Shown here: piece after piece, positions 9,651 through 30,873 of the stretch
Numbering within the stretch: the stretch's first letter is position 1
Layout of the letters: every line of letters starts with the position of its first letter
Source: Deltaproteobacteria bacterium
GTDB lineage: Bacteria; Desulfobacterota; Binatia; Bin18
DNA: 35,967 nucleotides
Direction of reading: 5' to 3'
Assembly: GCA_016200595.1 (NCBI GenBank)
Contig: JACQEL010000583.1
Span: 1-35,967, forward strand
Program-made: the position numbers and the translations under genes
The notes under the pieces: model-generated
What the model saw: the letters and a program-made list of their open reading frames with translations, nothing else
What the model was told of the DNA's origin: nothing
Database searches by the model: none

Positions 9651-9668
9651 GCAGAGGCACGAAAGCTG

Positions 9669-12600
9669 TTGAGTTTTACTGACAACAGACAAGATGCCTC
9701 ACTGCAGGCTGGGCACTTCAATGATTTCATCGAAATTGGCTTGCTCCGCGCGACCCTCTACCGCGCCGTTTATGATGCTGGTTCTGTGGGACTCTCTCAC
9801 CAGAATCTGGCACAGAAGGTGTTTGACGCGCTCAATCTTCCCCTCGAACGATACGCTAGCAATCCCACCGTGCGTTTCCAGCAACTAGCCGAGACGCACC
9901 GGGCGCTTCGGGAAGTGCTCGAATATCGCCTCTATCGAGACTTGCAACGTGGCTGGCGTATTACTGCCCCCAATCTTGAGCAGTGCGGCTTGTTAGAGAT
10001 TCGTTATCTGTCCCTCGATGAGGTCTGCCAAGCTGAAGATGTCTGGCAGAATAGCCATCCGGCCTTAGTCACAGCCAGCCCGCAGACCAGAATGCAGGTT
10101 GCTCGTGTTCTGTTGGACTATATGCGGCGAGAGCTCGCGATCAAGGTAGATGTATTGACTTCTCTCTATCAAGAGCGCATTCAGCGGCAGAGCAGTCAGT
10201 ATCTGATCGATCCGTGGGCACTCGATGAGAATGAGGTCACGCGCATGGAACGCGCGGCGATTCTTTTTCCCCGCCCCTCGCGTCCAGGAGATTACGGCGG
10301 ACACGTCTACCTCTCCGCCCGTGGCGGCTTCGGCCAGTACCTTGGACGGAATGCGACATTTCCGGAATGGAGAGATGCGTTACGTTTGGGGGACCGGCAA
10401 ACCATTATTCTCGACCTGCTGAAGGGCCTGGGGATAGCCGGGCTTGTCGAAATCGTGCAAGAGGCAAAGGGGAACGACGAGGTGTCTGGCTATCAACTCC
10501 CAGCATCGGCCTTACTATGGGTCGCCGGGGACGGTACGCGTGCCTTCCATGATCCGATCCGCATGCCAAATGTTCCAGAGACCGGAGGTCGAACAAATTC
10601 CTTCTTCGTGGAGTTTTACAAGACCATAGCAGCAGAAACTCAAGGGTTAGAAGCACGTGAGCATACTGCTCAGGTGCCCTATGAACTTCGCTTGGATCGT
10701 GAAAGCCGTTTTCGTACGGGGCAGTTGCCCGTCTTGTACTGTTCGCCGACTATGGAGCTTGGCGTTGACATTGCCGAACTCAATGTCGTCAATATGCGTA
10801 ATATTCCACCGACGCCGGCAAACTATGCCCAGCGCAGCGGGCGCGCTGGACGCAGTGGACAGCCAGCCTTAGTGTTCTCATACTGCGCCACGGGCAGTCC
10901 GCATGATCAATATTTCTTCAAACGGCCAGAGCGGATGGTGGCCGGTGCCGTCACTCCACCACGCCTCGACTTGGCCAACGAAGATCTCATTCATGCACAC
11001 GTTCAGGCTATTTGGCTGGCGGAAACAGGTTTGAGCCTTGGTCAATCGCTTAAAGATATCCTGGACATTACTGGCGAGGAGCCGAGCCTGGCACTGCAAG
11101 AGCAAGTACAGGCGGATATCGCAGCCGAGAGACCGCGACAGCGAGCACGTGCACGCGCCGAGCGGGTCCTGGCAACGATCGGTAATGAACTCCAGGTGGC
11201 AGATTGGTACACCGAGCGCTGGCTCGACGAAGGGCTTGCCCAAGTGGGACGGAATTTTGAGCAAGCCTGTGAACGCTGGCGGGGATTATATCGTGCGGCA
11301 TTATCTCAGGCCAAAGCGCAGGACCGTATCATCCGCGATGCTTCCCGCAGTGCACAAGATAAGGCCCAGGCAGAGCGACTACGGCGGGAAGCGGAATCTC
11401 AATTAAAATTACTGACCGAAGCTGAAGATCTTGCCCAGTCGGATTTCTACAGTTACCGCTACTTCGCTAGTGAGGGTTTTCTCCCTGGATATAGTTTTCC
11501 GCGTCTTCCACTTTCTGCGTACATCCCAGGACGGCGCACGAAACAGCGCGATGAATTCCTCTCCCGCCCGCGCTTCCTAGCGATATCTGAGTTTGGTCCG
11601 CAAGCCTTTATCTACCATGAAGGATCACGCTACGTCATCAATAAAGTCATCCTGCCAGTCGAAGCTGATGAGTTGCTGACGCGCCGGGCGAAGCAATGTC
11701 TGCATTGCGGCTATGTACATCCGATTACTGACGGTGAAGGGCTTGACCTGTGCGAGCGCTGTAAAGCGCCACTCGGCGCACCATTGACCTCGTTATTACG
11801 CTTGCAGAATGTCTCGACACGTCGTCGAGACAAGATCACTTCGGAAGAAGAGGAACGCACCCGTTTAGGCTATGAGATCATCACGGGTTTTCGCTTCGCA
11901 GAAACCGGCGGTCATCTCTCCTGCACCAGCGCCACCATTGAGCGAGAGGGAACTGTTTTAGGACACCTCACCTATGGCCATACAACGACGCTCTGGAGAA
12001 TCAATCTCGGGTGGCGACGGCGCAGGCAAAAAGATCAATATGGCTTTGTGCTTGATAAAGAACGCGGCTATTGGGCACGGAACGAACAAGTGATCGATGA
12101 AGATGATCAAAATCCGGACCCACTCTCTGCCCGAACCGCACGCGTCATTCCCTACGTGGAAGATCGCCGCAACTGTTTACTGTTTGAGCCGGCTGAATCA
12201 TACAGCGATACGGTGATGGCATCACTCCAGGCCGCCCTCAAAAGCGCGATCCAGGTAGTGTACCAACTGGAAGATAATGAACTCGCCGCCGAACCTCTTC
12301 CCGGTTCTGGCCCGCAGCCTCGACGGTTACTCCTCTTCTACGAGGCAGCCGAAGGCGGCGCTGGGGTACTGCGGCGCATCCTGGATGATCCGCAAGCGTT
12401 TGCTGAACTTGCAAAAGAAGCACTCCGTCTGTGTCACTTTGATCCCGACACTGGCGAGGACCGCAGGCGAGCGCCCCGCGCCTCAGAAGACTGCGAAGCC
12501 GCATGTTATGACTGCTTGATGGAGTATTACAATCAACGGGATCACCCTCTGCTTGATCGCCAAGCCATCCTCAACATTTTGCTGCGGTGGGCAGGGGCAC

Positions 12601-12965
12601 GCGTCGCCGCTTCACCAGGACCACAGTCACGCACGGAACATCTCGTGCAGTTGTCTCGTCTAGCCGGCTCGGAACTGGAGCGGTATTGGCTTCGCTATTT
12701 GGAGGAGCACAGCTATCGTCTTCCATCGCATGCCCAGAAATTGATTGAGGCATGCAAGACACAGCCTGATTTTTTTTACGAGGAGAGTCAGGCGGCTATC
12801 TACGTCGATGGCCGGCCACATGATTATCCACAGCGGCAAGAACGCGACGCCACCCAAACGGAATGTTTGGAAGACCATGGCTATCTGGTGATCCGCTTTG
12901 GTCACCAGGATGACTGGATGGCTAAAATCGCGCAGTATCCACATATCTTTGGGAGAAAAGCATGA
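9669..12965 (+). CDS. C-terminal part of the same helicase: RecA2 lobe + DUF1998 (MrfA-type Zn cluster) + DUF559/Vsr-like PD-(D/E)xK nuclease-fold domain
   Basis: It is in the same frame as 7770..9650 (both coordinates are 0 mod 3). It reads LLSFTDNRQDAS, then motifs V/VI SPTMELGVDI...YAQRSGRAGRSGQPA. A Zn ribbon CLHCG...CERC and the DUF1998-like CEAACYDCLMEYYNQRDH follow. The C-terminus reads PDFFYEESQAAIYVDGRPHDYPQRQERD...GYLVIRF. The TTG start in the track has only a weak RBS. Confidence 0.85.
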   Translation: MSFTDNRQDASLQAGHFNDFIEIGLLRATLYRAVYDAGSVGLSHQNLAQKVFDALNLPLERYASNPTVRFQQLAETHRALREVLEYRLYRDLQRGWRITAPNLEQCGLLEIRYLSLDEVCQAEDVWQNSHPALVTASPQTRMQVARVLLDYMRRELAIKVDVLTSLYQERIQRQSSQYLIDPWALDENEVTRMERAAILFPRPSRPGDYGGHVYLSARGGFGQYLGRNATFPEWRDALRLGDRQTIILDLLKGLGIAGLVEIVQEAKGNDEVSGYQLPASALLWVAGDGTRAFHDPIRMPNVPETGGRTNSFFVEFYKTIAAETQGLEAREHTAQVPYELRLDRESRFRTGQLPVLYCSPTMELGVDIAELNVVNMRNIPPTPANYAQRSGRAGRSGQPALVFSYCATGSPHDQYFFKRPERMVAGAVTPPRLDLANEDLIHAHVQAIWLAETGLSLGQSLKDILDITGEEPSLALQEQVQADIAAERPRQRARARAERVLATIGNELQVADWYTERWLDEGLAQVGRNFEQACERWRGLYRAALSQAKAQDRIIRDASRSAQDKAQAERLRREAESQLKLLTEAEDLAQSDFYSYRYFASEGFLPGYSFPRLPLSAYIPGRRTKQRDEFLSRPRFLAISEFGPQAFIYHEGSRYVINKVILPVEADELLTRRAKQCLHCGYVHPITDGEGLDLCERCKAPLGAPLTSLLRLQNVSTRRRDKITSEEEERTRLGYEIITGFRFAETGGHLSCTSATIEREGTVLGHLTYGHTTTLWRINLGWRRRRQKDQYGFVLDKERGYWARNEQVIDEDDQNPDPLSARTARVIPYVEDRRNCLLFEPAESYSDTVMASLQAALKSAIQVVYQLEDNELAAEPLPGSGPQPRRLLLFYEAAEGGAGVLRRILDDPQAFAELAKEALRLCHFDPDTGEDRRRAPRASEDCEAACYDCLMEYYNQRDHPLLDRQAILNILLRWAGARVAASPGPQSRTEHLVQLSRLAGSELERYWLRYLEEHSYRLPSHAQKLIEACKTQPDFFYEESQAAIYVDGRPHDYPQRQERDATQTECLEDHGYLVIRFGHQDDWMAKIAQYPHIFGRKA

Positions 12966-15802
12966 GCTTTGCGGTAGGGTCGCTTGTCAAAGCACGAGGA
13001 AGGGAATGGGTCGTCTTGCCGGAATCGGAGGACAATTTGCTCGTACTCCGTCCTCTTGGCGGCACTGAGGATGAGGTCACGGGCATCTATCTTCCACTTG
13101 AACGAGTCGAGTCGGCGCGTTTTGACCTACCCGACCCCACACAGCTTGGAGACGACCGTTCCTGCCGCTTACTTCGTGATGCGGTGCGCCTCGGATTTCG
13201 CGCCAGCGCCGGCCCGTTTCGCTCGTTCGCCCGCATCGCTGTCGAACCGCGTCCTTATCAGTTGATACCTTTGTTAATGGCGCTGAAACTTGATCCCGTA
13301 CGCCTGTTGATTGCTGATGATGTCGGCATCGGCAAGACTATCGAGGCGTGTCTCGTCGCCCGTGAATTGATTGACCGTGGTGAAGTCGGACGTCTCGCAG
13401 TCCTGTGTCCACCACAGCTGGCGGAGCAGTGGCAAGCGGAACTACGCGACAAGTTCCACATTGACGCTGCGCTGGTGCTTCCCGGTACGGCCTCCCGGTT
13501 AGAGCGAGACTGCGGGCCGACGCAGTCGTTGTTTGATCTCTACCCCTACGTGATCGTTTCGACCGATTTCATCAAGTCAGACCGTCGGCGCGACGAATTT
13601 CTCCGCACCTGCCCCGAGCTAGTCATCGTTGATGAAGCCCACACCTGCGCCTCTGCCGCAGAAGGGTGGGGAGGTCGGCATCAGCGTCATCAATTAGTCT
13701 CTGGTCTGGCAGCCAACCAGAACCGCCATCTCATTCTGGTCACCGCGACCCCTCATAGCGGTAATGAGGAAGCGTTTCGTTCGTTGCTTACCTTATTGAA
13801 GCCAGAGTTTGCCCAGCTACCGCCAGATCTCATGGGCCGAGAGCACGAAGCTCAGCGCCGGCAGCTTGCTGCCCATTTCGTAGAGCGACGACGCGGAGAC
13901 ATTCGCCGCTATTTAGAGGCTGACACCCCTTTCCCCGAACGGGAAGAGAGCGAACAGACTTACAAACTTTCCGATGGCTACAAACGGCTCTTTGAGCGGG
14001 CGCTGAAATACGCGCGTGAGACTGTTGCCGATCCGGCTGGTCACACCCATCGCCAACGAGTCCGCTGGTGGTCGGCGCTGGCGCTGCTACGTTCTTTGGC
14101 CTCCAGTCCTGCGGCAGCCGCAGCCACCTTACGCAGCCGCGCCGCCGTGGCGGACACCGAAACCCCGACCGAAGCCGACCAGATTGGTCGCCGCGTTGTG
14201 CTCGATCTCATAGATGATGAATCGGCAGAGGGCGCGGACCTTCCTCCTGGCAGTGATCCCGGCGAGGAAAATGATGATGGGCATGGCAATCGACGCCGTC
14301 TCCTAGAGATGGCGCGAGAGGCTGACGCCTTACAAGGGGATAAGGATGAGAAGCTGAAAAAAGCAATCAAGCTGGTGGAGGTCTTGGTGAAAGATGGCTT
14401 CAATCCGATCCTCTTTTGTCGTTTTATTCCCACGGCTGAATACGTGGCCTTGGCGCTGCGGGAGAAGTTACCAAAGAACATAGATGTCGCAGCGGTCACT
14501 GGCACGCTGCCGCCTGCGGAACGGGAAGAGCGGGTGCTGCAACTCGCTCAGGCGCCTCGGCGTGTGCTCGTCTGCACCGATTGTTTGAGTGAAGGTATTA
14601 ACCTGCAAGAACACTTCGACGCAGTCATGCACTATGATTTGTCCTGGAATCCGACCCGCCACGAGCAGCGCGAAGGACGAGTGGATCGCTATGCGCAACC
14701 GAGTAAAACAGTGCGAGTGTTGACGTATTACGGCGTTGATAACCAGATTGATGGTATCGTGCTTGATGTGCTGCTGCGGAAGCATAAGACTATCCGCAGC
14801 TCGCTTGGCATTTCTGTCCCGGTTCCAATCGACCCTGACCAGGTCATCGAAGCGATCTTTGAGGGACTGCTCCTGCGAGAGAGTTCGGGTAAGGGACAAC
14901 AGTATCTCCCTGGATTTGAAGAAATCCTCAAACCGCAAAAGGAAGACCTCTTCCAGAAGTGGGATGCCGCGACAGAACGAGAGAAGCGGTCACGGACGAT
15001 GTTTGCCCAAGAGACCATCAAAGTCGATGAAGTCGCTCGCGAACTCACAGCAGTGCGGGCAGCGATTGGTTCAAGCGTGGACGTTGCCACGTTCACTAAA
15101 GAGGCCTTCCGTGTCCAGGGTGCGGTCGTCAGCGAGAATGGTGCTGTCCGCTTTGATCTCACCGAAGTGCCCCGTGCTCTGCGTGAAGCTGTTGGCAACT
15201 ACGAGCGCCTGACCGCCCGCTTTGAACTTCCTATTAAGGATGGACAACTATACCTGAGCCGCACCCACCCGATCATTGAGGGTTTGGCGAGTTACGTCAT
15301 GGATACAGCTCTTGATTCGCTGGGGCAGGGAGTTGCACGTCGTTGCGGCGTGATCCGCACCAGCCAGGTGGAGCGCCGTACCACCGTACTGCTCGTGCGC
15401 TGCCGGTACCATATCGTTACACAGCGCGGTGACACGGCAGGCATGATGCAGGATTCCCCTCCTCTCTTGGCGGAAGATTGCCTTGTCCTGGCTTTTGCTG
15501 GCGCTCCACAGAGTGCGCAGTGGCTGGATGAGAAGCGGGCGGAGGAACTGCTGCACGCTCATCCTGAGACGAATGTGTCGCCGGACCAAGCCACCCACTT
15601 CTTGGGGATTGTCATTGATGGCTTTGCGGCGATTCAGCCTCAGCTCGATCGGATCGCTGAACAGCATGGCCAGGAGATCTTGGCGGCACATCGCCGCGTG
15701 CGGCAAGCTAGCCGACTGCGGAACGTGCGGTACACAGTCGAACCCCACTTACCTCCCGATGTGCTTGGTGTGTACGTGTACCTCCCGGTTAGTGGACGGT
15801 GA
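12962..15802 (+). CDS. SNF2-family helicase (DrmD-like)
   Basis: PYQLIPLL..LLIADDVGIGKTIEA (motif I), VIVDEAHTC (DEAH), LVTATPHSGNEE, and LSEGINLQ...YDLSWNPTRHEQREGRVDRYAQ (motifs V/VI). An ATGA overlap links it to the upstream stop. Confidence 0.85.
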   Translation: MSFAVGSLVKARGREWVVLPESEDNLLVLRPLGGTEDEVTGIYLPLERVESARFDLPDPTQLGDDRSCRLLRDAVRLGFRASAGPFRSFARIAVEPRPYQLIPLLMALKLDPVRLLIADDVGIGKTIEACLVARELIDRGEVGRLAVLCPPQLAEQWQAELRDKFHIDAALVLPGTASRLERDCGPTQSLFDLYPYVIVSTDFIKSDRRRDEFLRTCPELVIVDEAHTCASAAEGWGGRHQRHQLVSGLAANQNRHLILVTATPHSGNEEAFRSLLTLLKPEFAQLPPDLMGREHEAQRRQLAAHFVERRRGDIRRYLEADTPFPEREESEQTYKLSDGYKRLFERALKYARETVADPAGHTHRQRVRWWSALALLRSLASSPAAAAATLRSRAAVADTETPTEADQIGRRVVLDLIDDESAEGADLPPGSDPGEENDDGHGNRRRLLEMAREADALQGDKDEKLKKAIKLVEVLVKDGFNPILFCRFIPTAEYVALALREKLPKNIDVAAVTGTLPPAEREERVLQLAQAPRRVLVCTDCLSEGINLQEHFDAVMHYDLSWNPTRHEQREGRVDRYAQPSKTVRVLTYYGVDNQIDGIVLDVLLRKHKTIRSSLGISVPVPIDPDQVIEAIFEGLLLRESSGKGQQYLPGFEEILKPQKEDLFQKWDAATEREKRSRTMFAQETIKVDEVARELTAVRAAIGSSVDVATFTKEAFRVQGAVVSENGAVRFDLTEVPRALREAVGNYERLTARFELPIKDGQLYLSRTHPIIEGLASYVMDTALDSLGQGVARRCGVIRTSQVERRTTVLLVRCRYHIVTQRGDTAGMMQDSPPLLAEDCLVLAFAGAPQSAQWLDEKRAEELLHAHPETNVSPDQATHFLGIVIDGFAAIQPQLDRIAEQHGQEILAAHRRVRQASRLRNVRYTVEPHLPPDVLGVYVYLPVSGR

Positions 15803-15876
15803 TCGGTGGTCGGTAAAGGTCAAGGGTTAGTCCTCCCATTGATCATCGACCACTGAACTAGCATACTTGCCTTCTC

Positions 15877-15902
15877 CCAACTATGATAGTTGCTATAGTT
15901 GG
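15877..15902. promoter_or_regulatory. Nested palindromes upstream of the antitoxin gene (candidate TA operator)
   Basis: In ccaactatgatagttgctatagttgg, caacta-tga-tagttg is a perfect inverted repeat, and ccaactat pairs with atagttgg. It abuts the GGAGG RBS at 15901-15905. Confidence 0.4.
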
Positions 15903-15911
15903 AGGTGTTGC

Positions 15912-16184
15912 ATGACAGAAAAGGTCTCCACTTTAGAAGTTCGCCAGAAGCTCGGCGACATCCTGAATCGTGTCGCCCTCCGTCATGACCAGTTCATCAT
16001 CGAACGTAAAGGCAAGCCTTTGGCGGCGATGGTACCGGTCGAACAGTTTGAACAGATGCAGCGCGCGGCCCGCCTCCATTTGCTGCGGGTGCTGGATGAT
16101 CAGCCGGGAACCCTGTCACAAGAAGAGGCTGACCAGCTTGCCGACGAGGCGAAACACCGCACACGAAAATCCAAGCGGAAGTAA
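15912..16184 (+). CDS. Phd/YefM-type antitoxin
   Basis: MTEKVSTLEVRQKLGDILNRVALRHDQFIIERKGKPLAAMVPVEQFEQM is a typical Phd/YefM N-terminus. The ATG at 15912 is preceded by GGAGG, and the track start at 15867 is probably too far upstream. Confidence 0.8.
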   Translation: MTEKVSTLEVRQKLGDILNRVALRHDQFIIERKGKPLAAMVPVEQFEQMQRAARLHLLRVLDDQPGTLSQEEADQLADEAKHRTRKSKRK

Positions 16185-16190
16185 CTTCTC

Positions 16191-16622
16191 GTGCTCCGCG
16201 CCGTTCTTGATGCCAACGTACTCGCCAGCGCGCTGATCCGGCCACAGGGACCACCCGGGCAAATCGTGACTCGTTTCCTTGAGGATCATGCATTCGTACT
16301 CGTCGTCTCGGCTCCTATCCTCGAAGAGCTGCGCCGTTGTCTTTCATACCCGCGTGTGCGGAAATACCTGACTGTCACTGATGAGGAACTCGATCTGTGG
16401 GTGACCGCCCTTGGCCTGATTGCCGATTCAGTGGCAGGCGCTGCCTTTCTATCCGCGGTTGTTGCCGACCCTGACGATAACAAATATCTTGTTGCCGCGC
16501 TGGAAGGCCGTGCGGATTTCGTGGTCAGCGGGGACAGACATCTGCTCGATCTTGGAGAATACGAAGGTGTACGTATCATAACTCCACGCGCTTTCCTCCC
16601 CATGCTTCAACAGGAGAACTAG
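16191..16622 (+). CDS. PIN-domain toxin (TIGR00305-like)
   Basis: VLDANVLASALI (first acidic residue), ILEEL, and DPDDNKYLVAALEGRADFVVSGDRHLL. It starts at a GTG 6 nt after the antitoxin stop. Confidence 0.85.
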   Translation: MLRAVLDANVLASALIRPQGPPGQIVTRFLEDHAFVLVVSAPILEELRRCLSYPRVRKYLTVTDEELDLWVTALGLIADSVAGAAFLSAVVADPDDNKYLVAALEGRADFVVSGDRHLLDLGEYEGVRIITPRAFLPMLQQEN

Positions 16623-16623
16623 G

Positions 16624-19600
16624 ATGCAGCTCCGCCAGCGCGTTTCTTTCACTACTCTCCACGCGGAAGGCGCGATCCTTCCTGCCGACCTGCTCCAGCG
16701 CATTGCTGCTGGCGATCGCAATCTCACTGGACTCACCCCGGAAGACTATCACCTAGACAAAGGTGAGCGATTGAACGAGGCAACGAACCGTGCTTGGAAT
16801 CGTCTGGTTGGCACGTGGGCAACGTTTCGGGAGGCACGGGCAAAACTGTCTCCTGGCGATCTCGGTACGACGATTACGCGAGAGCGTTGGCTGCTTCCGC
16901 TGTGTTCTGAGCTTGGCTACGGACGCCTGCTCACCGCCAAAGCCATTGAAGTCGAGGGAAAGAGTTATCCAATTTCACACGGCTGGCAGCATGCACCGAT
17001 TCATCTCGTCGGCTGCCGCGTGGAGCTAGATACTCGCACCGCGGGCGTTGCCGGCGCTTCGCGGAGTAGTCCGCACGGACTTGTGCAAGAACTGCTCAAT
17101 CGTTCCGACAAACATTTGTGGGGATTCGTCTCCAATGGACTGCGGCTGCGTATTCTCCGGGACAACTCCAGTCTGACACGGCAGGCGTACGTTGAGTTTG
17201 ATCTCGAAGCCATGATGGAAGGTGAGGTCTATGCGGACTTCGTTCTCCTCTGGCTTCTCTGTCATGAGTCCCGGGTCGAAGCCGAACGACCGGCAGAATG
17301 CTGGCTTGAGCGCTGGTCCCGCACAGCCCAAGAGCAGGGCACTCGCGCGCTGGATCAACTCCGTGTCGGAGTCGAAGAAGCCATTACTGCTCTCGGCCGC
17401 GGCTTCCTGGTCCATCCGGCAAATCAGGGGCTGCGCGACAAGCTTCGTTCAGGGACATTAGAGAAGCATGAATACTACCGCCAGCTCCTCCGCCTGGTTT
17501 ACCGCTTACTCTTTCTCTTTGTGGCAGAAGATCGGGATCTGTTACTGAATCCGCAAGCCGACGTGGCTGCACGTGATCGCTACCAACGCTTCTATTCTAC
17601 TGCCAAATTGCGCCGCTTAGCTGAGCGCCGTGTCGGTACGCGGCATGCTGACCTCTACCACGGGCTTCGGCTGATTATACAAAAGCTCGGCAGTGATACT
17701 GGCTGTCCAGAACTCGCCCTCCCTGCATTGGGCAGTTTTCTTTTTTCTACGGAGGCGGTTCCTGATCTTGAGGGATGCGAAATCAGCAATCACGCTTTGC
17801 TGGATGCCATACGCGCACTGGCGTTTTCCACAGATAGTCACTCACGCCGGCTCGTCGATTATAAGAACCTTGGCTCTGAAGAACTGGGCAGCGTCTACGA
17901 GTCACTGCTGGAATTGCATCCAATCCTAAATGTTGATGCGGGAGCGTTCGAGCTCAAGACCGCTGGCGGTCACGAACGCAAGACCACTGGCAGTTATTAT
18001 ACGCCAACCAGTCTCATTCAGTGCCTTCTCGATTCTGCTCTTGATCCCGTGTTAGAAGAAGCGGCACGACAAGAAAACCCTGAAGCAGCAATCCTCAAAC
18101 TCAAAGTCTGTGATCCAGCGTGCGGGAGTGGCCACTTCCTGATCGCCGCCGCTCATCGTATCGCGAAGCACTTGGCTACAATCCGCACTGGTGATGACGA
18201 GCCATCCCCGGATGCAATACGTACAGCATTGCGCGACGTTATTGGTCACTGCATTTACGGCGTAGACGTTAATCCGATGGCAGTCGAGCTTTGCAAGGTG
18301 AGCCTATGGATGGAGGCGCTAGAGCCGGGCAAGCCGTTGTCTTTTCTCGATCATCGTATTCAGTGCGGCAACAGCCTGCTCGGTGCGACGCCAGCGTTGC
18401 TCAAGAAAGGCATTCCAGACGAGGCGTTTGATCCTATCGAAGGCGACGACAAGGAAGTGTGCCGAAAGTTCAAGAAGCTGAATAGAGAGGAGCGGAAAGG
18501 GCAAGGGTCATTGTTCGATGCATCTCTCCAACCATGGGAACGGCTAGGAGACCTCGCTGCTGGTCTGCTGAGCCTGGAGGAGATCTCAGACGATACCATT
18601 GCGGGCGTGCGGCATAAGCAGGAGCGTTACGAAGGTCTGGTGCGCTCCAGCGGCTACCTCTATGGCCGCCTGTGGGCCGATGCCTGGTGCGCGGCTTTTG
18701 TATGGAAGAAGACCAAGGAGTTTCCTTACCCGATCACTGAAGAAGTTTTTCACAGAATCGAGCAGAATCCCTTCTCTATTGCTTCTTGGATGCGCGAGGA
18801 GATCCAGCAGTTAGCCAAACAGTATCAGTTTTTCCACTGGCACCTAGTGTTTCCTGATGTCTTCTGGGTGCCGACAGGAAGTGAAGAACCCGAGAATGCG
18901 CAGGCTGGCTGGAGCGGCGGCTTCGACGTAGTGTTGGGCAACCCGCCGTGGGAACGGGTGAAGCTGCAAGAAAAGGAGTTCTTCGTCGAACGCAGCCCAG
19001 AGATCGCTAGTGCCTCTAACGCCGCCGTCCGTAAGCGCCTGATCACACAGCTGGTTGCTGACAACCCAAGCTTGATGGCCGAGTTTCAAACCGCTCAGCG
19101 CGAGGCCGAGGGCGAAAGTCATTTCATGCGCAACAGCGGTACCTATCCGCTCTGCGGTCGGGGCGACATCAACCTCTACACCATCTTCGCCGAAGCCGCC
19201 AGTAAACGCCTTGCTCCACCTGGACGTATGGGTCTCGTGCTTCCTTCCGGCATCGCCACCGACGATACCACAAAGTTCTACTTCCAAGATGTAATTGACA
19301 CCCGCTCGCTCGTCAGTCTATTTGATTTTGAGAACAAGGGCATCTTTCCCGGTGTCCACAGTAGCTACAAGTTCTGTCTCTTCACCGCCGGTTCTGGACG
19401 AGCCGCCCCGGCGGGGCGGAAGGACGGTGATGCCGCCGAGTTCGCGTTCTTCGCCCATTCCGTGGACGATCTCCAAGATCCCAAACGCCGCTACACCCTC
19501 TCTGCCGAGGACATTGCGCGTCTCAATCCCGACACACGTACTTGCCCCATCTTCCGTTCCAGCCTCGACGCTGGGCTTACGAAGACGATTTACGCTCACA

Positions 19601-20637
19601 CGACTATAGTTGGGGCAAGTGCATCTTCGGGCGGTTGGGGCGTCGACTATCTCCTCAAGCTCGTCGATCCGACTATTCACCGAGACCTCTTGGTAACAGA
19701 GGCTGAGGCCCTGCGGTTCCGAACTGGCGAAGCAACTGCCGAAAGTCTGGAAGGGCAAGCCTTGCCATTGTATGAGGGTAAGCAGATCCACCACTTCGAT
19801 CATCGCTACGCGACTTTCGACGGAGGCGAAGAGTGCAAGGTTAGTCTTCTAGATGACAAGCTTAAGGCGGGCTTTTCCGTGATGCCGAGGTACTGGCTGA
19901 GAGCGGCTGACTTCAAAGCGCGACTGCAGGGTCGCCCCATTCATTATCATGCATTCCTGTCGGTGAGAGACATTGCACGAGTGACGGACGAGCGCTCGTT
20001 CGTGACCGCCATTCGATCGTTTGTTCCAGCGCTGAACTCCCTGGGTAATCTCTTCTGCTGTTCTGCATCAGATGCGCTCTTTCTGTGTGGTTGCCTCAAC
20101 TCGTATGCAGCCGACTACGTTGCCAGGCAGAAGGTTGGAGGCACGCATCTGAGCCCTTTCTATCTGATGCAATTGGCGGTTGCCTCGCCCAGCAATGCAG
20201 GTCTCCGTACGCCTTGGTCAGAACCGAGCACCGCGAGACGGTGGGTGGAAGAGCGGGTTCTGGAACTTACCTACACCGCCTGGGACCTGGAGCTGTTCGC
20301 GCAGGACTGCGGTTGGAGCGGCCCACCCTTCTGCTGGGACGAGGAGCGGCGCTTCCTGCTACGCTGTGAGTTGGACGCAGCATTCTTTCATCTCTACCGC
20401 ATCACCCGCGAAGATGTAGACTATATCATGGAGACTTTCCCCATCGTTAAGCGTAAGGACGAGAAAAAATACGGCGAGTATCGCACTAAGCGTGTTATCC
20501 TGGAAATCTACGACGCTATGGCCGAAGCCATCGGCACCGGCAAACCCTACCAGACTCTGCTTGACCCACCGCCTGCTGACCCCCGCATGGCCCACCCGCT
20601 GCGACAGAATTCTGCCGCGCAGAGCATAAGACTCTGA
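16624..20637 (+). CDS. Large gamma-class N6-adenine DNA methyltransferase (DrmMI / PglX / Eco57I-like)
   Basis: SAM motif I VCDPACGSGHFLIAA, and motif IV VLGNPPWERVK (NPPW at 18940-18951), in a 1337-aa protein. The ATG lies 1 nt after the PIN stop, and the RBS AGGAG sits inside the PIN gene. Confidence 0.85.
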   Translation: MQLRQRVSFTTLHAEGAILPADLLQRIAAGDRNLTGLTPEDYHLDKGERLNEATNRAWNRLVGTWATFREARAKLSPGDLGTTITRERWLLPLCSELGYGRLLTAKAIEVEGKSYPISHGWQHAPIHLVGCRVELDTRTAGVAGASRSSPHGLVQELLNRSDKHLWGFVSNGLRLRILRDNSSLTRQAYVEFDLEAMMEGEVYADFVLLWLLCHESRVEAERPAECWLERWSRTAQEQGTRALDQLRVGVEEAITALGRGFLVHPANQGLRDKLRSGTLEKHEYYRQLLRLVYRLLFLFVAEDRDLLLNPQADVAARDRYQRFYSTAKLRRLAERRVGTRHADLYHGLRLIIQKLGSDTGCPELALPALGSFLFSTEAVPDLEGCEISNHALLDAIRALAFSTDSHSRRLVDYKNLGSEELGSVYESLLELHPILNVDAGAFELKTAGGHERKTTGSYYTPTSLIQCLLDSALDPVLEEAARQENPEAAILKLKVCDPACGSGHFLIAAAHRIAKHLATIRTGDDEPSPDAIRTALRDVIGHCIYGVDVNPMAVELCKVSLWMEALEPGKPLSFLDHRIQCGNSLLGATPALLKKGIPDEAFDPIEGDDKEVCRKFKKLNREERKGQGSLFDASLQPWERLGDLAAGLLSLEEISDDTIAGVRHKQERYEGLVRSSGYLYGRLWADAWCAAFVWKKTKEFPYPITEEVFHRIEQNPFSIASWMREEIQQLAKQYQFFHWHLVFPDVFWVPTGSEEPENAQAGWSGGFDVVLGNPPWERVKLQEKEFFVERSPEIASASNAAVRKRLITQLVADNPSLMAEFQTAQREAEGESHFMRNSGTYPLCGRGDINLYTIFAEAASKRLAPPGRMGLVLPSGIATDDTTKFYFQDVIDTRSLVSLFDFENKGIFPGVHSSYKFCLFTAGSGRAAPAGRKDGDAAEFAFFAHSVDDLQDPKRRYTLSAEDIARLNPDTRTCPIFRSSLDAGLTKTIYAHTTIVGASASSGGWGVDYLLKLVDPTIHRDLLVTEAEALRFRTGEATAESLEGQALPLYEGKQIHHFDHRYATFDGGEECKVSLLDDKLKAGFSVMPRYWLRAADFKARLQGRPIHYHAFLSVRDIARVTDERSFVTAIRSFVPALNSLGNLFCCSASDALFLCGCLNSYAADYVARQKVGGTHLSPFYLMQLAVASPSNAGLRTPWSEPSTARRWVEERVLELTYTAWDLELFAQDCGWSGPPFCWDEERRFLLRCELDAAFFHLYRITREDVDYIMETFPIVKRKDEKKYGEYRTKRVILEIYDAMAEAIGTGKPYQTLLDPPPADPRMAHPLRQNSAAQSIRL

Positions 20638-20653: not shown

Positions 20654-22297
20654 ATGGAGGACGGACAGTTGGAGCAACTTATCTGGTACACCGTTCCTGG
20701 GGCACTGGTAGTGGCAGCCATGCTCCTTGTTTGGCCTCACGTCCTCCAGCCGGATGGAATGACAGCACTCATTATTGCAGGGACCCCACTCCTGGGGTTT
20801 GTAATACATCAGGCATACCGGCTATTTTTCGAGTGGCGAGGTGGATTCACCCAGGAGTCACGCAGATCATTAGACATCCTTTGGCAGGCAATAGCGAGAC
20901 CTTGCGGATTTGAGAACTCCGATCATCGTTACACAAAAAGTTTCTTAATTTGGGAAATCACATTCTACGGAGAAGAGATCCCTGAAGGCTTTCGCGGTCA
21001 TGACAGAGGCGCATGGCACTACATCCTTTCGTTCCGGGCTAGTTCTTGGAGTAGCTTCTTCGCAGCGTTCATTCTCGTGTGGGCAATTTTATGGCGCACC
21101 TATACCAATACTCAACAAGGGAGCCTCTTTTATCTTATCATTGCTGCTTTGGTTGCTGTTGCTGTAGGATTTATTTTCTGTTTCAAAGGGAAGCAGACGC
21201 ACGAGAGCCTGATGAATCAAGAGATTGCTGTGATTTACCGCTATGCTGAAAAGTTTTCTGAAACCGCGAGAAAATTGCGCATTTTGGACAAAGGAGACAT
21301 CGTGGCAAGATACGTAGCTTGGGTCGATATTCTTGGCTTTGCTTCGCTAATGACAGCTGATGGCGACCGCGCCAAGCGTACCTGGACAGAACTACGTGAA
21401 TTAGTAAAGAAGCACCTTCCCGCAAAGGGAGGAGCTCAGGTGTACGGTATCAATGACGGCTTCTTCGCCATCAGCGAGGATCCCGCACTGCTCCAAGGGC
21501 TCGTAAGTATTTATCAGTCCTGGTTCGATAAATTTGCAGAGGTACCGGGTAGCCGGCCGTTACTTCGGGGGGCCATTTCGACAGCCTCTGCTGAGATTAC
21601 ACCCGAGCAAGAGGACTCTAATGTTTGTCTGTGGCTTGAGGGGCCTGGCTTTAGATATGCCTCTGAGTATGAGCAACTACTTCGGGGTTCCCGCTTGTTT
21701 ATTGACCCTACCGCTATTAAAGTTGCCGAAAGTGAGGCTAACCTATTCTGCTATGAGTGGGAGGAGATCTCTGGCTGGGAGCTCCCCGAAAATAGTAGGG
21801 GCATGCATCTAGGAGAGGTCCTTTGGCCTATTTCGGAAGACTCGGCAGAACTCCTAGTTCGTGCAGAAAAGTCGTTTAAGCTTTATGATGGAGCCTTTGC
21901 CGACTTTCTTCGCAAAGAAGCTGATGTTGGCCTAAAGGACGCACTTCCAAAGCTTCTTCAGTATGAGGAAACGCTCAAGCTGATGTTGCGCAGCATCGGT
22001 AAGAAATTACATGCCGATGCTGGCAAGAAGGAAGAGTTGGAGCAGTTCGTTTCAAGGATGCTAAAATATCGCCCAGACCAGTTTCGGTTGACATGGGGAG
22101 TTACGTTTGTTGCCCTTGAAGCAGTGTTCCTTGCAGGGTGCCTAGATGCTCACCATTATGCGCGGTGCGTCAAAGAATACCTCGGAAAACAGTCGAATAA
22201 CCTTGAAAATGTTCGGTTTGTAAAGGATTTTGAGGAGGAGCTAAAGCTCTCGACATATAAGCGCTTTTCAGAGTGGTGGCATTCCAACAGCAGATGA
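20654..22297 (+). CDS. Unassigned membrane protein: about 4 TM helices + divergent class III cyclase-like domain + helical C-terminal domain
   Basis: TM candidates are LIWYTVPGALVVAAMLLVW, MTALIIAGTPLLGFVIHQAY, SSFFAAFILVWAILW and LFYLIIAALVAVAVGFIFCF. Then come VAWVDILGFASLM...GAQVYGINDGFFAIS...LLRGAISTASAE...EGPGFRYASEYEQ. The ATG at 20654 has AAGGAG at 20637-20642, and the track's TTG at 20645 is too close to that RBS. Confidence 0.7.
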   Translation: MEDGQLEQLIWYTVPGALVVAAMLLVWPHVLQPDGMTALIIAGTPLLGFVIHQAYRLFFEWRGGFTQESRRSLDILWQAIARPCGFENSDHRYTKSFLIWEITFYGEEIPEGFRGHDRGAWHYILSFRASSWSSFFAAFILVWAILWRTYTNTQQGSLFYLIIAALVAVAVGFIFCFKGKQTHESLMNQEIAVIYRYAEKFSETARKLRILDKGDIVARYVAWVDILGFASLMTADGDRAKRTWTELRELVKKHLPAKGGAQVYGINDGFFAISEDPALLQGLVSIYQSWFDKFAEVPGSRPLLRGAISTASAEITPEQEDSNVCLWLEGPGFRYASEYEQLLRGSRLFIDPTAIKVAESEANLFCYEWEEISGWELPENSRGMHLGEVLWPISEDSAELLVRAEKSFKLYDGAFADFLRKEADVGLKDALPKLLQYEETLKLMLRSIGKKLHADAGKKEELEQFVSRMLKYRPDQFRLTWGVTFVALEAVFLAGCLDAHHYARCVKEYLGKQSNNLENVRFVKDFEEELKLSTYKRFSEWWHSNSR

Positions 22298-22420: not shown

Positions 22421-23416
22421 ATGAAACCAAGCGATATTGAATCGTGGACCCTCGATATCATAGCTCGCGTTCGGGCTGGCCAGCCGATCGAAGACACCCG
22501 CGTCGAACTGAAAGCTGAGTGGCCGGAGGCATCAAAGGCCGCTCGTAGACTGGCTGGTCATGCCAATGCAGCTCGTGGTGAGCCCATTCTCTGGCTTATC
22601 GGTGTTGACGAGAAAAAAGGTGTTGTGGGTGCAGCACGGAGGGATCTCGCATCGTGGCTTCCACAAGTTTGTGCCGAGTTCGATCAGTTACCTCCCCCAC
22701 TTATTGACGTAAATGTTCCAACTGGAGACACTACCGTCGTTGCTCTGTATGTAGAAACAGAACGAGCTCCCTTCGTCGTACGTAATCCTGTTTTTGGACA
22801 GCAAGGGGGAGGTTCTGTTGAGAGAGAAGTGCCGTGGCGAGATGGAACTAAGATCCGCAGCGTCCGCCGAGAGGACCTTCTCCGTCTGCTTGGGCCGTTA
22901 AGACGAATGCCTAAGGTCGAAGTCCTTGGAGGCAGTGTCGAGGCCCGGGGTAGTAAATACAACCCTGTTGAGGGAGGTTACTCAAAGGTAGCTGGAGAAC
23001 AGAGCCAGTGGCAGATCAAGATCCCTCTCTATATCGTGCCGATGGATACTCAAGTTCTCACAATCCCCTTCCACCGCTGTATCGCAGAGGTGAGTATAGC
23101 AGGCATCCTTGAAGAGGCGAATTTCACGGTGCGTCGCCTTCGACCTATTAAGTGGAATCCTACTATCGCAGTCCCGGCTTCCGTTAACATCGTGACGTCT
23201 GAGTCAGAAACTGTGATACGCGGGCCAGGAAAGGTCGAACTGGAGGCATACTTTAAAGAGGAACATCTATCATCGACGTCGCACGGTTCAGGACGTCTGA
23301 AAGTCTGTTTAGCCTTGGCGGAAGTGGACAGGTCCGTCGTGATTGTCGGTAATCTCTTGCCGGTGAAGGAGTACGTCTTTGAGATGGCGAACATCAATGT
23401 CTCGTACTCAGTGTAG
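22421..23416 (+). CDS. Unassigned protein: N-terminal AlbA_2/Schlafen-like putative nucleic-acid-binding domain + beta-rich C-terminal domain
   Basis: EDTRVELKAEWP...LAGHANAARGEPILWLIGVDEKKGVVGA...VVALYVETERAPFVVRN...VPWRDGTKIRSVRREDLLRLL follows the AlbA_2 (PF04326) motif order as I remember it. No profile search was run. Confidence 0.55.
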   Translation: MKPSDIESWTLDIIARVRAGQPIEDTRVELKAEWPEASKAARRLAGHANAARGEPILWLIGVDEKKGVVGAARRDLASWLPQVCAEFDQLPPPLIDVNVPTGDTTVVALYVETERAPFVVRNPVFGQQGGGSVEREVPWRDGTKIRSVRREDLLRLLGPLRRMPKVEVLGGSVEARGSKYNPVEGGYSKVAGEQSQWQIKIPLYIVPMDTQVLTIPFHRCIAEVSIAGILEEANFTVRRLRPIKWNPTIAVPASVNIVTSESETVIRGPGKVELEAYFKEEHLSSTSHGSGRLKVCLALAEVDRSVVIVGNLLPVKEYVFEMANINVSYSV

Positions 23417-23573
23417 ACCGGCGGTCAGTCCTGTCGCATACACAACCTGTAACGGCAGTGTACCGAATCCCCTGTGGTTTGATTCAGTAGCGTGCATCTT
23501 TTCAGACCGTCTGCTTCTGAGGTGACGATGCGTCCTCTTTTTTCTCTCCCCTCTGCCGAACTACAATAGCGGT

Positions 23574-24200
23574 ATGGAAGACGACGAGACTCTTGAGGAA
23601 TGGCTCCACACAAGCAGTGTGGCATCTTTATTCCCACTACTGCGGCGAGGCCTCTATCATGTAACAAGCATAGAGGGCTACCGGGGGATTCGCCGTGATG
23701 GCTTTATTCGGCCTTGGGATGGAAGCTTTCGAGCTGCTTTCCCTAAGAGCAACAGTCACGCACGGCATCACGGTTGGGTTCCTCTGTTTGATTTCCAAAC
23801 GCCTACCGAGGAACAATACTTTCAAGTGAGACATCAATGGGGCATGTTCTTCGTAAAAGACGAGCCTGTCACTATTCTGATCCATCTTTCTCGGGAAAAG
23901 CTAGCGCCAAAGCTTATCCCCAATGAGGCTGTAGAAACAGAAGCAGATTACCGTCAGAGGCTGAGGATACCGTATGTAGAGGTGTGGTATCCAGAGCCGA
24001 TACCGTTGTCGGCCATCCAAAGCTTCATTCTCGTGTTTCCATCGAAGCCGGTGAGGTACCTCATATTTAGGGCGAATGAGGAGGGGCTCGCGGAACTTGA
24101 CAGAATACTTGGTGAAATAGAGGCTCTTATCGCCGCTGGCCTCATCAAAGTCCTCTCCACCCGCGACCGCTTCATAGCACGGCTTCGCCAGTCCTATTGA
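23574..24200 (+). CDS. Unassigned 208-aa protein, possibly ADP-ribosyltransferase-fold (DarT/DUF4433-like)
   Basis: [20 protein letters not shown] resembles the H-x-T motif, and [24 protein letters not shown] resembles the DarT C-terminal AEFLV...P...I..I.V motif. The similarity is weak and judged by eye. Confidence 0.5.
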
Positions 24201-24211
24201 AGGGTTGCTGG

Positions 24212-24397
24212 TGGGTAGATAAGGAGCATGTTCGACCCTTCGCCAGAGACTACGGCTACGATGGACCGTCGTCCCGCTGGGATAAGGAGCGGCGTTTCTT
24301 GCTGTGCTGTGAACTCGATGCTGCCTACTTCCACCTCTACGGCATCGCCCGCGACGACGTGGACTACATCATGGAAACCTCCCCTATCATGAAATAG
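24212..24397 (+). pseudogene. Relic of a second methyltransferase gene, 3'-end fragment part 1
   Basis: It translates to [52 protein letters not shown]. The intact methylase C-terminus reads [52 protein letters not shown]. Confidence 0.8.
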
Positions 24398-24424
24398 GTA
24401 GCTGAGAAAGAAGTAAAAGAACGC

Positions 24425-25090
24425 ATGGGAGATAGTCTATTACAAATTGAGGGCTTACGAGTAAAAAATGACGGCGACAGGACTGTCCGGCAATTTGCTC
24501 TTGATATCGACAGCTTGGAAGTCCGACCTAACGATTGCATCCTCATTCTTGCTGATCGATGTCATGGTAAGTCGGCACTGAGAGCTTCATTGAAAGCGAT
24601 ATTCTGTCAACCGCTGACCGAGGGGAATAACCTGGATATCCCACAGTGCGAAGAATCTAAACCTATAGTGCATGTAGACTCTCTATTCCGAAGAGAAGAT
24701 GCCTGTTTTCATGAGCAGGGTGGAGATCCTAAAGGACTTCAGGCAGTAGAGGACCGCTCAACGATTATCTACTGTGATGACCCGCTTTTTCCGCATACCC
24801 AGAATTCATCCAGCCGCGAGATTCTCGACACTGTTCGTAAAAGATCGCTGACTATGATGATGGCTAGTGATCCTGACAGGCTCCAAGGAACATTGGAGTA
24901 TCTTCTTACTCATCAAACGAGTCGCATTCTGTGGCTGTGTAACGGCAGGGTATTCTGGAACGGATTGGCAGGAGAGTTTCATACCTCCGTCGATGCACTG
25001 TGCGGTCGCTACCGGTCAGAAGCCGAACAAGGACGAAGCACTGAGAATTTTCTGAGAACAATCCACGCTGCGACTCAGAGATTCAATTAA
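24425..25090 (+). CDS. Degenerate ABC-ATPase-like protein (221 aa)
   Basis: The layout is ABC-like: LLQIEGLRV, Walker A degraded to ILADRCHGKSAL, Walker B IIYCDDPLF (no catalytic Glu), H-loop position MMMASDPD, and ILWLCNGRV. Confidence 0.5.
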   Translation: MGDSLLQIEGLRVKNDGDRTVRQFALDIDSLEVRPNDCILILADRCHGKSALRASLKAIFCQPLTEGNNLDIPQCEESKPIVHVDSLFRREDACFHEQGGDPKGLQAVEDRSTIIYCDDPLFPHTQNSSSREILDTVRKRSLTMMMASDPDRLQGTLEYLLTHQTSRILWLCNGRVFWNGLAGEFHTSVDALCGRYRSEAEQGRSTENFLRTIHAATQRFN

Positions 25091-25645: not shown

Positions 25646-26230
25646 CTAGCGAACGCTTCTCTGCCCGGCGTGTGTGGTCCTCACTGGTCCTCCAGGAATG
25701 CGGCCTAAACGTTCAAAGATGAGCTGGCAGATGGCAAGCTTCCCCGGGGTTAAGCGCAGAGGATAGTTACCGAAATTATACATCTCAAGCACAATGCGGC
25801 CGGGAAACCCGGCATGGATCGTTGGCGCGGTCAAGTGAACCACGAGCCCCAGCCGGGCTAACGTGCTCCGGCCTTCGACACGAGCAGCGATCTTCGATCG
25901 TCTTGGCAGCTCTAGGTACTCCCTGGTAATGCCCAAGACGAATTTCCCCGGCTGGAGGATGAAAGAGCCATCGGGTTCTTGGGGTAAGGGTTTGGCGTAT
26001 CTCCTAAGAAAATCCTTCAGGTCAATGTGTAGAGGATCGACAACGATGGGTCGTTCTACGCCTCTAGGTTCTTCTCGTGCCAGTTCCTCTGGCGTCTTCA
26101 GCTCAAAAATCTCATCGCCAAGAATGAGATCCAAGGCTGAGGTAGTGTACTGCTCTTCTGTCGGAAGCGGGTCGATCAGGATCTTTTTCTGACGCAGAGT
26201 CTCCCGAATTTCGCGGTCACTAAGAATCAC
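25646..26230 (-). CDS. dcd: dCTP deaminase
   Basis: 194 aa reading MILSDREIRE..., GRSTLARLGLVVHLTAPTIHAGFPGRIVLEMYN, with a GTG start. Confidence 0.9.
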   Translation of the reverse strand: MILSDREIRETLRQKKILIDPLPTEEQYTTSALDLILGDEIFELKTPEELAREEPRGVERPIVVDPLHIDLKDFLRRYAKPLPQEPDGSFILQPGKFVLGITREYLELPRRSKIAARVEGRSTLARLGLVVHLTAPTIHAGFPGRIVLEMYNFGNYPLRLTPGKLAICQLIFERLGRIPGGPVRTTHAGQRSVR

Positions 26231-30797: not shown

Positions 30798-30827
30798 TTG
30801 ACAGGTGGACGATTGTCCACCTATACT
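30798..30827 (+). promoter_or_regulatory. Sigma70-type promoter with a perfect palindromic operator filling the spacer (candidate LexA-like autoregulatory site)
   Basis: TTGACA (30798-30803), then GGTGGAC-GATT-GTCCACC (30804-30821), then TATACT (30822-30827). The RBS AAAGGAGAAGG and ATG 30874 lie downstream. Confidence 0.55.
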
Positions 30828-30873
30828 AGGGATAAGGGAAGTGGGCACTCGTTTGCCAAAAGGAGAAGGTACT

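Follow-up and report, generated by a model that had tools for sequence, protein, structure and literature searches.

A membrane-anchored protein from a rare, unannotated family combines a class III cyclase fold retaining half of the active site with a conserved helical domain

The gene HY268_20270 lies in a phage-defence island on contig JACQEL010000583.1 of a metagenome-assembled genome (MAG) of a Deltaproteobacteria bacterium; the entire contig (35,967 bp) is the window analyzed here. We tentatively propose, with slightly less than even confidence, that HY268_20270 encodes a membrane-anchored two-domain protein in which a cyclase-fold domain forms a two-metal, nucleoside triphosphate (NTP)-binding and possibly catalytic half-site of the C1 type, non-canonical nucleotidyl transfer being the activity that we favour. 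The fold, the pattern of active-site residues and its conservation throughout the family, the domain architecture, the fusion junction, the rarity of the family, and the genomic contexts of its members are shown by the analysis; NTP binding, catalysis, completion of the site in cis, and a role in defence are inferred. The original prediction, made from the sequence of the window, had described a membrane-anchored protein with a class III cyclase-like core and had suggested either a non-canonical nucleotide product or a degenerate sensor domain; these may be regarded as the two live hypotheses. It had missed the C-terminal helical domain of the protein and had not recognized the operon upstream as an ARMADA type I system that is complete without HY268_20270.

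Results

The soluble core of HY268_20270 has a predicted class III cyclase fold

The product of the open reading frame (ORF) is identical to the NCBI entry 'MAG: hypothetical protein HY268_20270 [Deltaproteobacteria bacterium]', and the window is its single source contig. Comparison of this product by BLASTP with the canonical class III cyclase encoded at one end of the window (E-value of 0.002, 24% identity over 131 residues) reproduced the four blocks of similarity reported in the original prediction. The same four blocks were recovered by hhalign (probability of 83%, E-value of 9e-6, 143 columns) on comparing a 24-sequence family profile (alignment A2) with a profile built from the cyclase of the window, its relatives, and two PDB cyclases. 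The AlphaFold2 (AF2) model of residues 216–547, obtained with alignment A2, was of high confidence (predicted local distance difference test, pLDDT, of 91.7; predicted template modelling score, pTM, of 0.92). Searching the PDB with this model (Foldseek) returned class III cyclase domains for 50 of the 50 matches listed, with E-values of 7e-6 to 3e-4 and TM-scores, normalized on the target, of at most 0.74. These matches included trypanosomal GRESAG4, Rv1900c, Ma1120, CyaC, CyaB, Cya2, Rv1625c, and soluble guanylyl cyclase, and the likeness extended past the β-α-β-β-α-β core. Among the viral structures of BFVD, cyclase-domain proteins also led the matches, GGDEF proteins being weaker (about 100 columns, E-values of 0.04–0.3).

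Sequence searches were less sensitive. The nine best matches of the A2 profile to PDB sequences were all class III cyclases and all sub-threshold, and a three-sequence profile returned noise only. No match to PF00211 was detected for the whole protein or for residues 216–369, even at E-values up to 10, and none of 10 relatives matched this model. The link to cyclases is therefore visible only by profile–profile comparison, in sub-threshold PDB matches, and in the fold, which places the family beyond the reach of ordinary hidden Markov models. A chance resemblance to the neighbouring cyclase was rejected since the similarity is family-wide, holds at the level of the fold, and is not specific to that gene. 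The class III nucleotidyl-cyclase fold of the soluble core of HY268_20270 is thus confirmed at the level of the structural model, as the original prediction had anticipated.

The two-metal half of the active site is retained family-wide and the Asn/Arg pair is lost

The BLASTP and hhalign alignments place D225 on metal-binding Asp 1, at the end of strand β1, and D268 on metal-binding Asp 2, in the β2–β3 hairpin. G228 aligns with the D-x-x-G phosphate loop and R305 with the Arg of the β4 motif 'fRlGI' (or 'xRxGI'). Conservation was counted across 41 family sequences, with denominators varying by column. These four residues were invariant or nearly so (D225 in 34 of 34 sequences, G228 in 34/34, D268 in 36/36, and R305 in 34/35) in a family in which pairwise identities are as low as 16–20%. 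Retention of both metal-binding Asp residues, which had been deduced from HY268_20270, therefore extends to its homologues.

The canonical α4 motif N-x-A-x-R-x-E is partially preserved: A336 and E340 of HY268_20270 correspond to its Ala and Glu, and the Asn and Arg positions alone are lost. The latter are occupied by R334 and E338, respectively, in agreement with the substitutions originally noted. Asn and Arg were not conserved at these positions anywhere in the family, the 'Asn' column containing Ala (9), Arg (7), Pro (7), Gly (3), and Val (2), and the 'Arg' column Glu (14), Lys (5), Asp (4), His (2), and Ser (2). Loss of the pair is thus a family-wide trait rather than an accident of one sequence. 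In class III cyclases, the base is specified by Lys and Asp for ATP and by residues of the Glu/Cys type for GTP. The position of the base-specifying Lys, four residues before metal-binding Asp 2, is occupied by Y264 (Tyr in 24 of 36 sequences), and the second base-specifying position lies in the poorly aligned arm region. Ma1120, an active class III cyclase of Mycobacterium avium, naturally harbors Ala at the Asn position and retains the Arg (PMC4215837). Absence of the Arg therefore sets the family further apart than absence of the Asn.

The cyclase-fold domain is joined to a conserved helical domain

In all full-length members of the family, the cyclase-like domain is followed by a helical domain of about 155 residues, which accounts for half of the soluble module and was modelled with the cyclase-like domain as one rigid unit (the pTM of 0.92 reported above). 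Its most conserved positions are T440 (30/30), E439 (27/30), K442 (27/31), R446 (28/31), and W481 (29/31). The domain had no relatives in Pfam, and searching its profile against the PDB gave noise only. Its single hydrophobic helix is not transmembrane (TM)-like in most members.

HY268_20270 carries an N-terminal membrane module acquired by a recent fusion

Kyte-Doolittle hydropathy analysis (19-residue windows) recovered the four N-terminal hydrophobic helices previously noted, at approximately residues 9–28 (TM1), 36–56 (TM2), 129–149 (TM3), and 155–177 (TM4). Lys and Arg residues cluster in the loop formed by residues 57–128 and in the stretch past residue 178. By the positive-inside rule, this loop and the cyclase-like domain, and hence the rest of the protein, are predicted to be cytoplasmic. 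A full-length AF2 model based on a three-sequence alignment was unusable (pLDDT of 49.7). The TM module had no significant Pfam match and no homologue in the related loci or, by tblastn, in plasmids and phages. The GC content at third codon positions (GC3) of the module (0.51) equalled that of the remainder of the gene, the three parts of which ranged from 0.49 to 0.51. The initiation codon is preceded by a ribosome-binding site (AGGAG, 10 nucleotides upstream) and is separated by 16 nucleotides from the stop codon of the upstream methyltransferase gene. The original proposal of a cyclase fused to a TM effector in HY268_20270 holds for the fusion of a TM module to a cyclase-like domain. The effector role is not established: the TM module bears no feature of an effector, and ordinary membrane cyclases likewise have a TM module followed by a helix and a cyclase domain.

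The junction between the two parts retains what appears to be the start region of a stand-alone gene. In HY268_20270, the motif AAGGAGA is followed, after 13 nucleotides, by TACGTAGCTTGG. In the stand-alone homologue of locus L001 (68% identity), AAGGAGA is followed, after 13 nucleotides that include the ATG initiation codon, by TATGTAGCTTGG. In both cases, AAGGAGA and 13 nucleotides thus precede TAYGTAGCTTGG, and the junction is colinear with the 5' untranslated region (UTR) and start of L001. The ATG of L001 corresponds to GCA in HY268_20270, with a GTG codon located 3 nucleotides 5' of the latter. As judged from this colinearity, the segment marks the ancestral start region, at which all stand-alone homologues begin. 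The relic Shine-Dalgarno (SD) sequence and its spacing indicate that the TM module was added in a recent, lineage-specific fusion, when a frame located upstream came to be read across the former ribosome-binding site. Initiation at the internal GTG may also yield a short soluble isoform in addition to the membrane form.

The family is rare and mostly soluble

Word-indexed homologue searches recovered 3 and then 8 relatives, and an exhaustive HMMER search of 1.84 billion cluster representatives was required to reach the full family of 37 clusters, 24 relatives being aligned in A2. Loci were searched with a closer alignment set (A3). Members were found in 2 of 185,579 species-representative genomes (a Hydrogenedentota MAG and an Opitutales MAG) and in five JGI metagenome contigs. 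No Pfam or NCBIfam model matched HY268_20270, its sub-regions, or ten relatives significantly, and the same was true of PADLOC and PHROGs. The family is unnamed and undescribed.

The relatives are soluble proteins of approximately 310–360 residues that start 2 to 20 residues ahead of strand β1. TM-like segments were present in only two of the 41 members, at the N-terminus of HY268_20270 and at the C-terminus of P0003. Because of this low count, the membrane fusion is a late accessory and not the defining design of the family, although two independent acquisitions in a small family hint that membrane localization is useful to its function. The two-helix hydrophobic tail of P0003 begins where nucleotide homology to the sister locus L020 stops (L003, positions 2430–2692). 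This copy may be damaged because an in-frame TAA is present just before β1 (L003, positions 1440–1490), where the sister loci L004 and L020 have CAA.

A second group of short proteins (157–276 residues; P0026, P0027, P0033, P0035, P0037, and P0039) contains the cyclase-like half only, with the motifs YVAWxDxMG, DGxY, and xRGAIAxG, a different C-terminus, and no Pfam match. These proteins extend the divergent cyclase-fold clade beyond the 330-residue family.

Homologues are solo genes in varied neighbourhoods

Elsewhere, the homologues are solo genes in varied neighbourhoods, which are often rich in toxin-antitoxin or defence genes. They adjoin a Gp49/HTH_37 toxin-antitoxin pair; TIR-like genes, a methyltransferase gene, and higB; HEPN/MNT and DUF433/DUF5615 genes; or a gene encoding a helicase-PLD protein. 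All-against-all BLAST and hydropathy analysis of neighbours revealed no conserved partner gene and no separate TM partner across loci, with one exception: an upstream ORF of 258 codons without Pfam match is common to L004 (positions 2004–2780) and L020 (positions 1–738) and may encode a clade-specific partner in this sub-clade. No second cyclase-fold gene was found beside family members in the loci examined.

HY268_20270 follows a complete ARMADA type I system

Immediately upstream from HY268_20270, Pfam, NCBIfam, and PADLOC scans identified an ARMADA type I-like system (Table 1), parts of which were labelled DruE, DpdE/DrmD, and DrmMI by PADLOC. As defined (bioRxiv 10.1101/2025.09.15.676423), ARMADA type I comprises a YprA-like helicase, a BrxHII/SNF2 helicase, and a PglX/DrmMI methylase. 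By gene content, the upstream system is complete without HY268_20270, which falls outside the described set and was therefore rejected as an ARMADA component. Assignment to DISARM, which adds DrmB and DrmC, was likewise rejected in the absence of any PADLOC or NCBIfam DISARM match. ARMADA or DISARM genes were present in none of the other loci examined that contain a homologue.

HY268_20270 and the three ORFs that follow it have a GC content of 49–52%, as compared to 55–57% for the ARMADA genes and 58–64% for the flanks, and a GC3 of 0.44–0.53, as compared to 0.60 for the ARMADA genes. These four ORFs were probably acquired separately from the ARMADA genes. The three downstream ORFs had no significant match in Pfam, NCBIfam, PADLOC, or PHROGs and no homologue near the relatives of HY268_20270. 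The first (22421–23416) had a sub-threshold match to SLFN_AlbA_2 (E-value of 0.046), and the third contains a P-loop-like 'GKS' motif. Scanning of neighbouring ORFs revealed no effector that would bind cyclic nucleotides. A dCTP deaminase-like gene (25646–26230, minus strand) borders the island, and a pair of genes for a UmuD-like S24 peptidase and a UmuC-like Y-family polymerase (30805–32764) lies downstream from it. The reference cyclase used for alignment is located outside the feature and is unrelated to the defence island.

Table 1. Position in the window of HY268_20270, its parts, and neighbouring genes.
Feature	Positions	Strand	Description	Basis
HY268_20270, whole ORF	20654–22297	+	ATG at 20654, stop codon 22295–22297, 547 residues	
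N-terminal 4-TM module	20654–21184	+	Residues 1–177	Hydropathy
Linker	21185–21301	+	Residues 178–216; predicted helical, low confidence; holds remnant of the ancestral 5' UTR	
Relic SD and start	21291–21304	+	AAGGAGA 21291–21297, 4-nucleotide spacer, GTG 21302–21304 (V217)	Colinearity with L001
Class III cyclase-fold domain	21302–21829	+	Residues 217–392; further key residues G228, E340, G345, R347, W391	BLASTP, AF2, Foldseek, hhalign, conservation
Codon of D225	21326–21328	+		
Codon of D268	21455–21457	+		
Codon of R305	21566–21568	+		
Codon of R334	21653–21655	+		
Codon of E338	21665–21667	+		
Family-specific all-helical domain	21830–22294	+	Residues 393–547, 7 helices	Alignment, AF2, conservation
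ARMADA type I-like system	7770–20637	+		Pfam, NCBIfam, PADLOC scans
YprA-like helicase, split in two ORFs	7770–9650 and 9669–12965	+	ORFs 18 nucleotides apart; second with DUF1998/MZB and Vsr-like DUF559 nuclease	
SNF2/BrxHII-like helicase	12962–15802	+		
Phd/YefM antitoxin and PIN_3 toxin pair	15867–16622	+	Inserted between SNF2 helicase and methyltransferase genes	
PglX/DrmMI-like methyltransferase	16624–20637	+		
Three co-directional ORFs	22421–25090	+	331, 208, and 221 residues; low GC like HY268_20270	
Reference canonical class III cyclase	1–1927	−	PF00211, then TM helix and long TPR array; cut by the window edge	

Discussion

Class III cyclases are thought to need two complementing cyclase domains and the Asn/Arg pair for catalysis. 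The C1 domain of mammalian adenylyl cyclase and the alpha subunit of soluble guanylyl cyclase have kept the metal-binding Asp pair and the phosphate-binding Arg and have lost the Asn/Arg pair; they work only with a partner domain supplying Asn, Arg, and the base-specifying residues. The residue pattern of the family is the same as that of these half-sites, the difference being that their partner is a paralogous domain, whereas no second cyclase-fold gene accompanies the family in the loci examined. With class III cyclases in general (PF00211; Rv1900c and Rv1625c of M. tuberculosis, Ma1120 of M. avium, and CyaC of Spirulina), the family shares the fold, the two metal-binding Asp residues, the D-x-x-G loop, the β4 Arg, and the Ala and Glu of α4; the copy found in HY268_20270 additionally has an N-terminal TM module, as do the membrane cyclases of the Rv1625c type. 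The family differs from them by the lack of a PF00211 match, by non-conserved or acidic residues in place of Asn and Arg, by the Tyr at the Lys position, by a dimerization arm that is not formed in the HY268_20270 model, and by the obligatory helical domain of 155 residues.

Pycsar consists of two genes encoding the pyrimidine cyclase PycC, which carries conserved class III catalytic motifs, and a PycTM or PycTIR effector (PMC11224242). HY268_20270 resembles Pycsar by the presence of a class III cyclase fold in a defence context, and some Pycsar systems have membrane-spanning effectors, but the family of HY268_20270 lacks the Asn/Arg pair and the TM part of Pycsar sits on the receptor protein rather than on the cyclase. 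Membership was rejected because neither HY268_20270 nor its downstream neighbours had a PADLOC match (no PADLOC model, including those for Pycsar and CBASS, matched HY268_20270), the flanking ORFs scanned contained no domain binding cyclic nucleoside monophosphates (cNMPs), and no partner was conserved. Panoptes combines OptS, an mCpol synthase with a Cas10-type palm, and OptE, a separate 2-TM effector of the S-2TM-beta type (PMC12657218). It is similar in coupling a small synthase of the palm/cyclase superfamily to a membrane protein and in being rare and widely scattered, but the fold of HY268_20270 is nearer to class III cyclases than to GGDEF or Cas10-type domains and there is no beta-barrel nucleotide-binding domain. 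Assignment to Panoptes/mCpol was rejected owing to the lack of any Pfam match, the preference of the fold search for class III cyclases, and the failure to find a gene for an S-2TM-beta partner. A GGDEF diguanylate cyclase was rejected because the hairpin reads G-I-N-D-G-F and GGDEF domains were absent from the top 50 PDB matches.

The cyclase-fold domain has kept the two-metal and triphosphate half-site (both Asp residues, the D-x-x-G loop, and the β4 Arg), whereas the transition-state Asn/Arg pair and the base-specifying Lys, which belong to the second half, are gone. In the mechanism that we propose, the domain would bind Mg- or Mn-NTP in the cytoplasm and would most likely still be able to transfer nucleotidyl groups by two-metal catalysis. 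Non-canonical residues would stand in for the missing groups, the candidates being the E439-T440-x-K442...R446 helix of the C-terminal domain of the protein itself or R344 and R347, and something other than an ordinary 3',5'-cNMP may be produced. The four TM helices would tether the enzyme to the inner membrane. The gene would be a horizontally acquired solo cassette located beside the ARMADA type I system in the defence island, with a probable role in conflicts with phages or mobile elements. We favour catalysis because invariance of the Asp pair and of the loop at less than 20% identity is what catalysis would demand, and because the obligatory, rigidly packed helical domain contains conserved Thr, Lys, and Arg residues as possible substitutes. 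A bolder version of this proposal, which we consider quite unlikely, is that of a self-contained enzyme in which E439, T440, K442, and R446 of the helical domain supply the missing catalytic half in cis, in place of a second cyclase domain. Such an enzyme would make a non-canonical nucleotide or consume NTPs as a one-gene anti-phage or conflict module, here wired to the membrane.

Several observations weigh against catalysis and against a defence role. The transition-state Arg, which is kept even in Ma1120, is missing from the family, and residues 312–330 (approximately), corresponding to the canonical dimerization arm, were unstructured and of low confidence in the AF2 model. Canonical cyclization may be impossible because Asn and Arg are essential in mammalian cyclase, according to the mutagenesis of Yan et al. 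(1997) as cited in PMC4215837. A non-catalytic Mg-NTP sensor would be expected to conserve the metal-binding Asp residues just as well. The argument for a defence role comes entirely from the neighbourhood, and one homologue is inserted between mnmE and mnmG, a housekeeping setting. No member was detected in the viral loci of IMG/VR or, by tblastn, in plasmid and phage records, and the negative results obtained with PADLOC and PHROGs, reported above, point in the same direction. Literature searches revealed nothing relevant on a cyclase-fold defence gene of this type or on a cyclase accessory to DISARM or ARMADA.

The family-wide loss of the Asn/Arg pair and of the base-specifying Lys, together with the degenerate dimerization-arm region, would also be accounted for by a pseudo-enzyme in which the cyclase fold binds Mg-NTP or another nucleotide without turnover and controls the helical domain, whose conservation makes it a candidate output module. 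Such a sensor may be likened to a degenerate half-site of the C1 type or to the degenerate allosteric site of GGDEF proteins. In HY268_20270, the TM module may be the actual output, for instance by perturbing the membrane when nucleotide pools shift during infection, and the independent addition of TM segments at opposite ends of HY268_20270 and P0003 is in agreement with this possibility. We nevertheless consider a pseudo-enzyme, the main rival of our proposal, somewhat unlikely. Decayed sites are usually less constrained than the site of this family, in which both Asp residues, the D-x-x-G loop, and the β4 Arg are invariant at less than 20% identity. Membrane segments are missing from 39 of the 41 members, and the one hydrophobic helix in the helical domain is mostly not TM-like. 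In addition, neither the Foldseek search of the PDB nor the comparison of the helical-domain profile with PDB sequences revealed a toxin-like or pore-like fold.

An ordinary receptor-type membrane cyclase producing cAMP or cGMP for housekeeping, and located beside the defence island by coincidence, would fit the succession of TM module, helix, and cyclase domain, the fold matches to Rv1625c, CyaB, and Cya2, and the homologue located between mnmE and mnmG. This explanation is highly improbable in view of the lack of a PF00211 match even at an E-value of 10, the missing Asn/Arg pair and Lys, and the extreme rarity and patchiness of the family, the two loci detected in species-representative genomes belonging to two different named lineages. 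The atypically low GC content of the gene in this contig and the prevalence of soluble solo genes among toxin-antitoxin and defence genes also argue against it. The fusion itself might not be the functional form, the main product being, like those of the relatives, a soluble protein of about 331 residues initiated at the internal GTG (V217) and the 216 upstream codons a separate or accidental frame or an artefact of the assembly or annotation of the MAG. The relic SD sequence, with its 4-nucleotide spacing from a GTG located exactly at the homologous start position, the lack of homologues of the TM module in any search, and the single contig as source are compatible with this scenario. We give it little credence since the 216 codons are free of stops, in frame, and preceded by a good ribosome-binding site and an ATG of their own, immediately behind the upstream gene. 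The four hydrophobic helices that they specify are well formed and follow the positive-inside rule in their charge distribution, and the GC content by codon position does not differ from that of the remaining codons. Finally, the ancestral ATG has been replaced by GCA, and any ribosome starting at 20654 must yield the fused protein.

The fold and the recognizable half of the active site were known from class III cyclases. An unannotated family, an unusual complement of residues, a new partner domain, and a membrane anchor unique to this copy are new, the anchor being a recent acquisition and not central to the design. The rarity of the family limits its general impact. The occurrence of its members among toxin-antitoxin and defence genes makes it a candidate new conflict module. 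If inactive, the family would illustrate clearly how a cyclase fold can be converted to nucleotide sensing. If active, it would reveal a new way of completing a class III active site and possibly a new nucleotide product.

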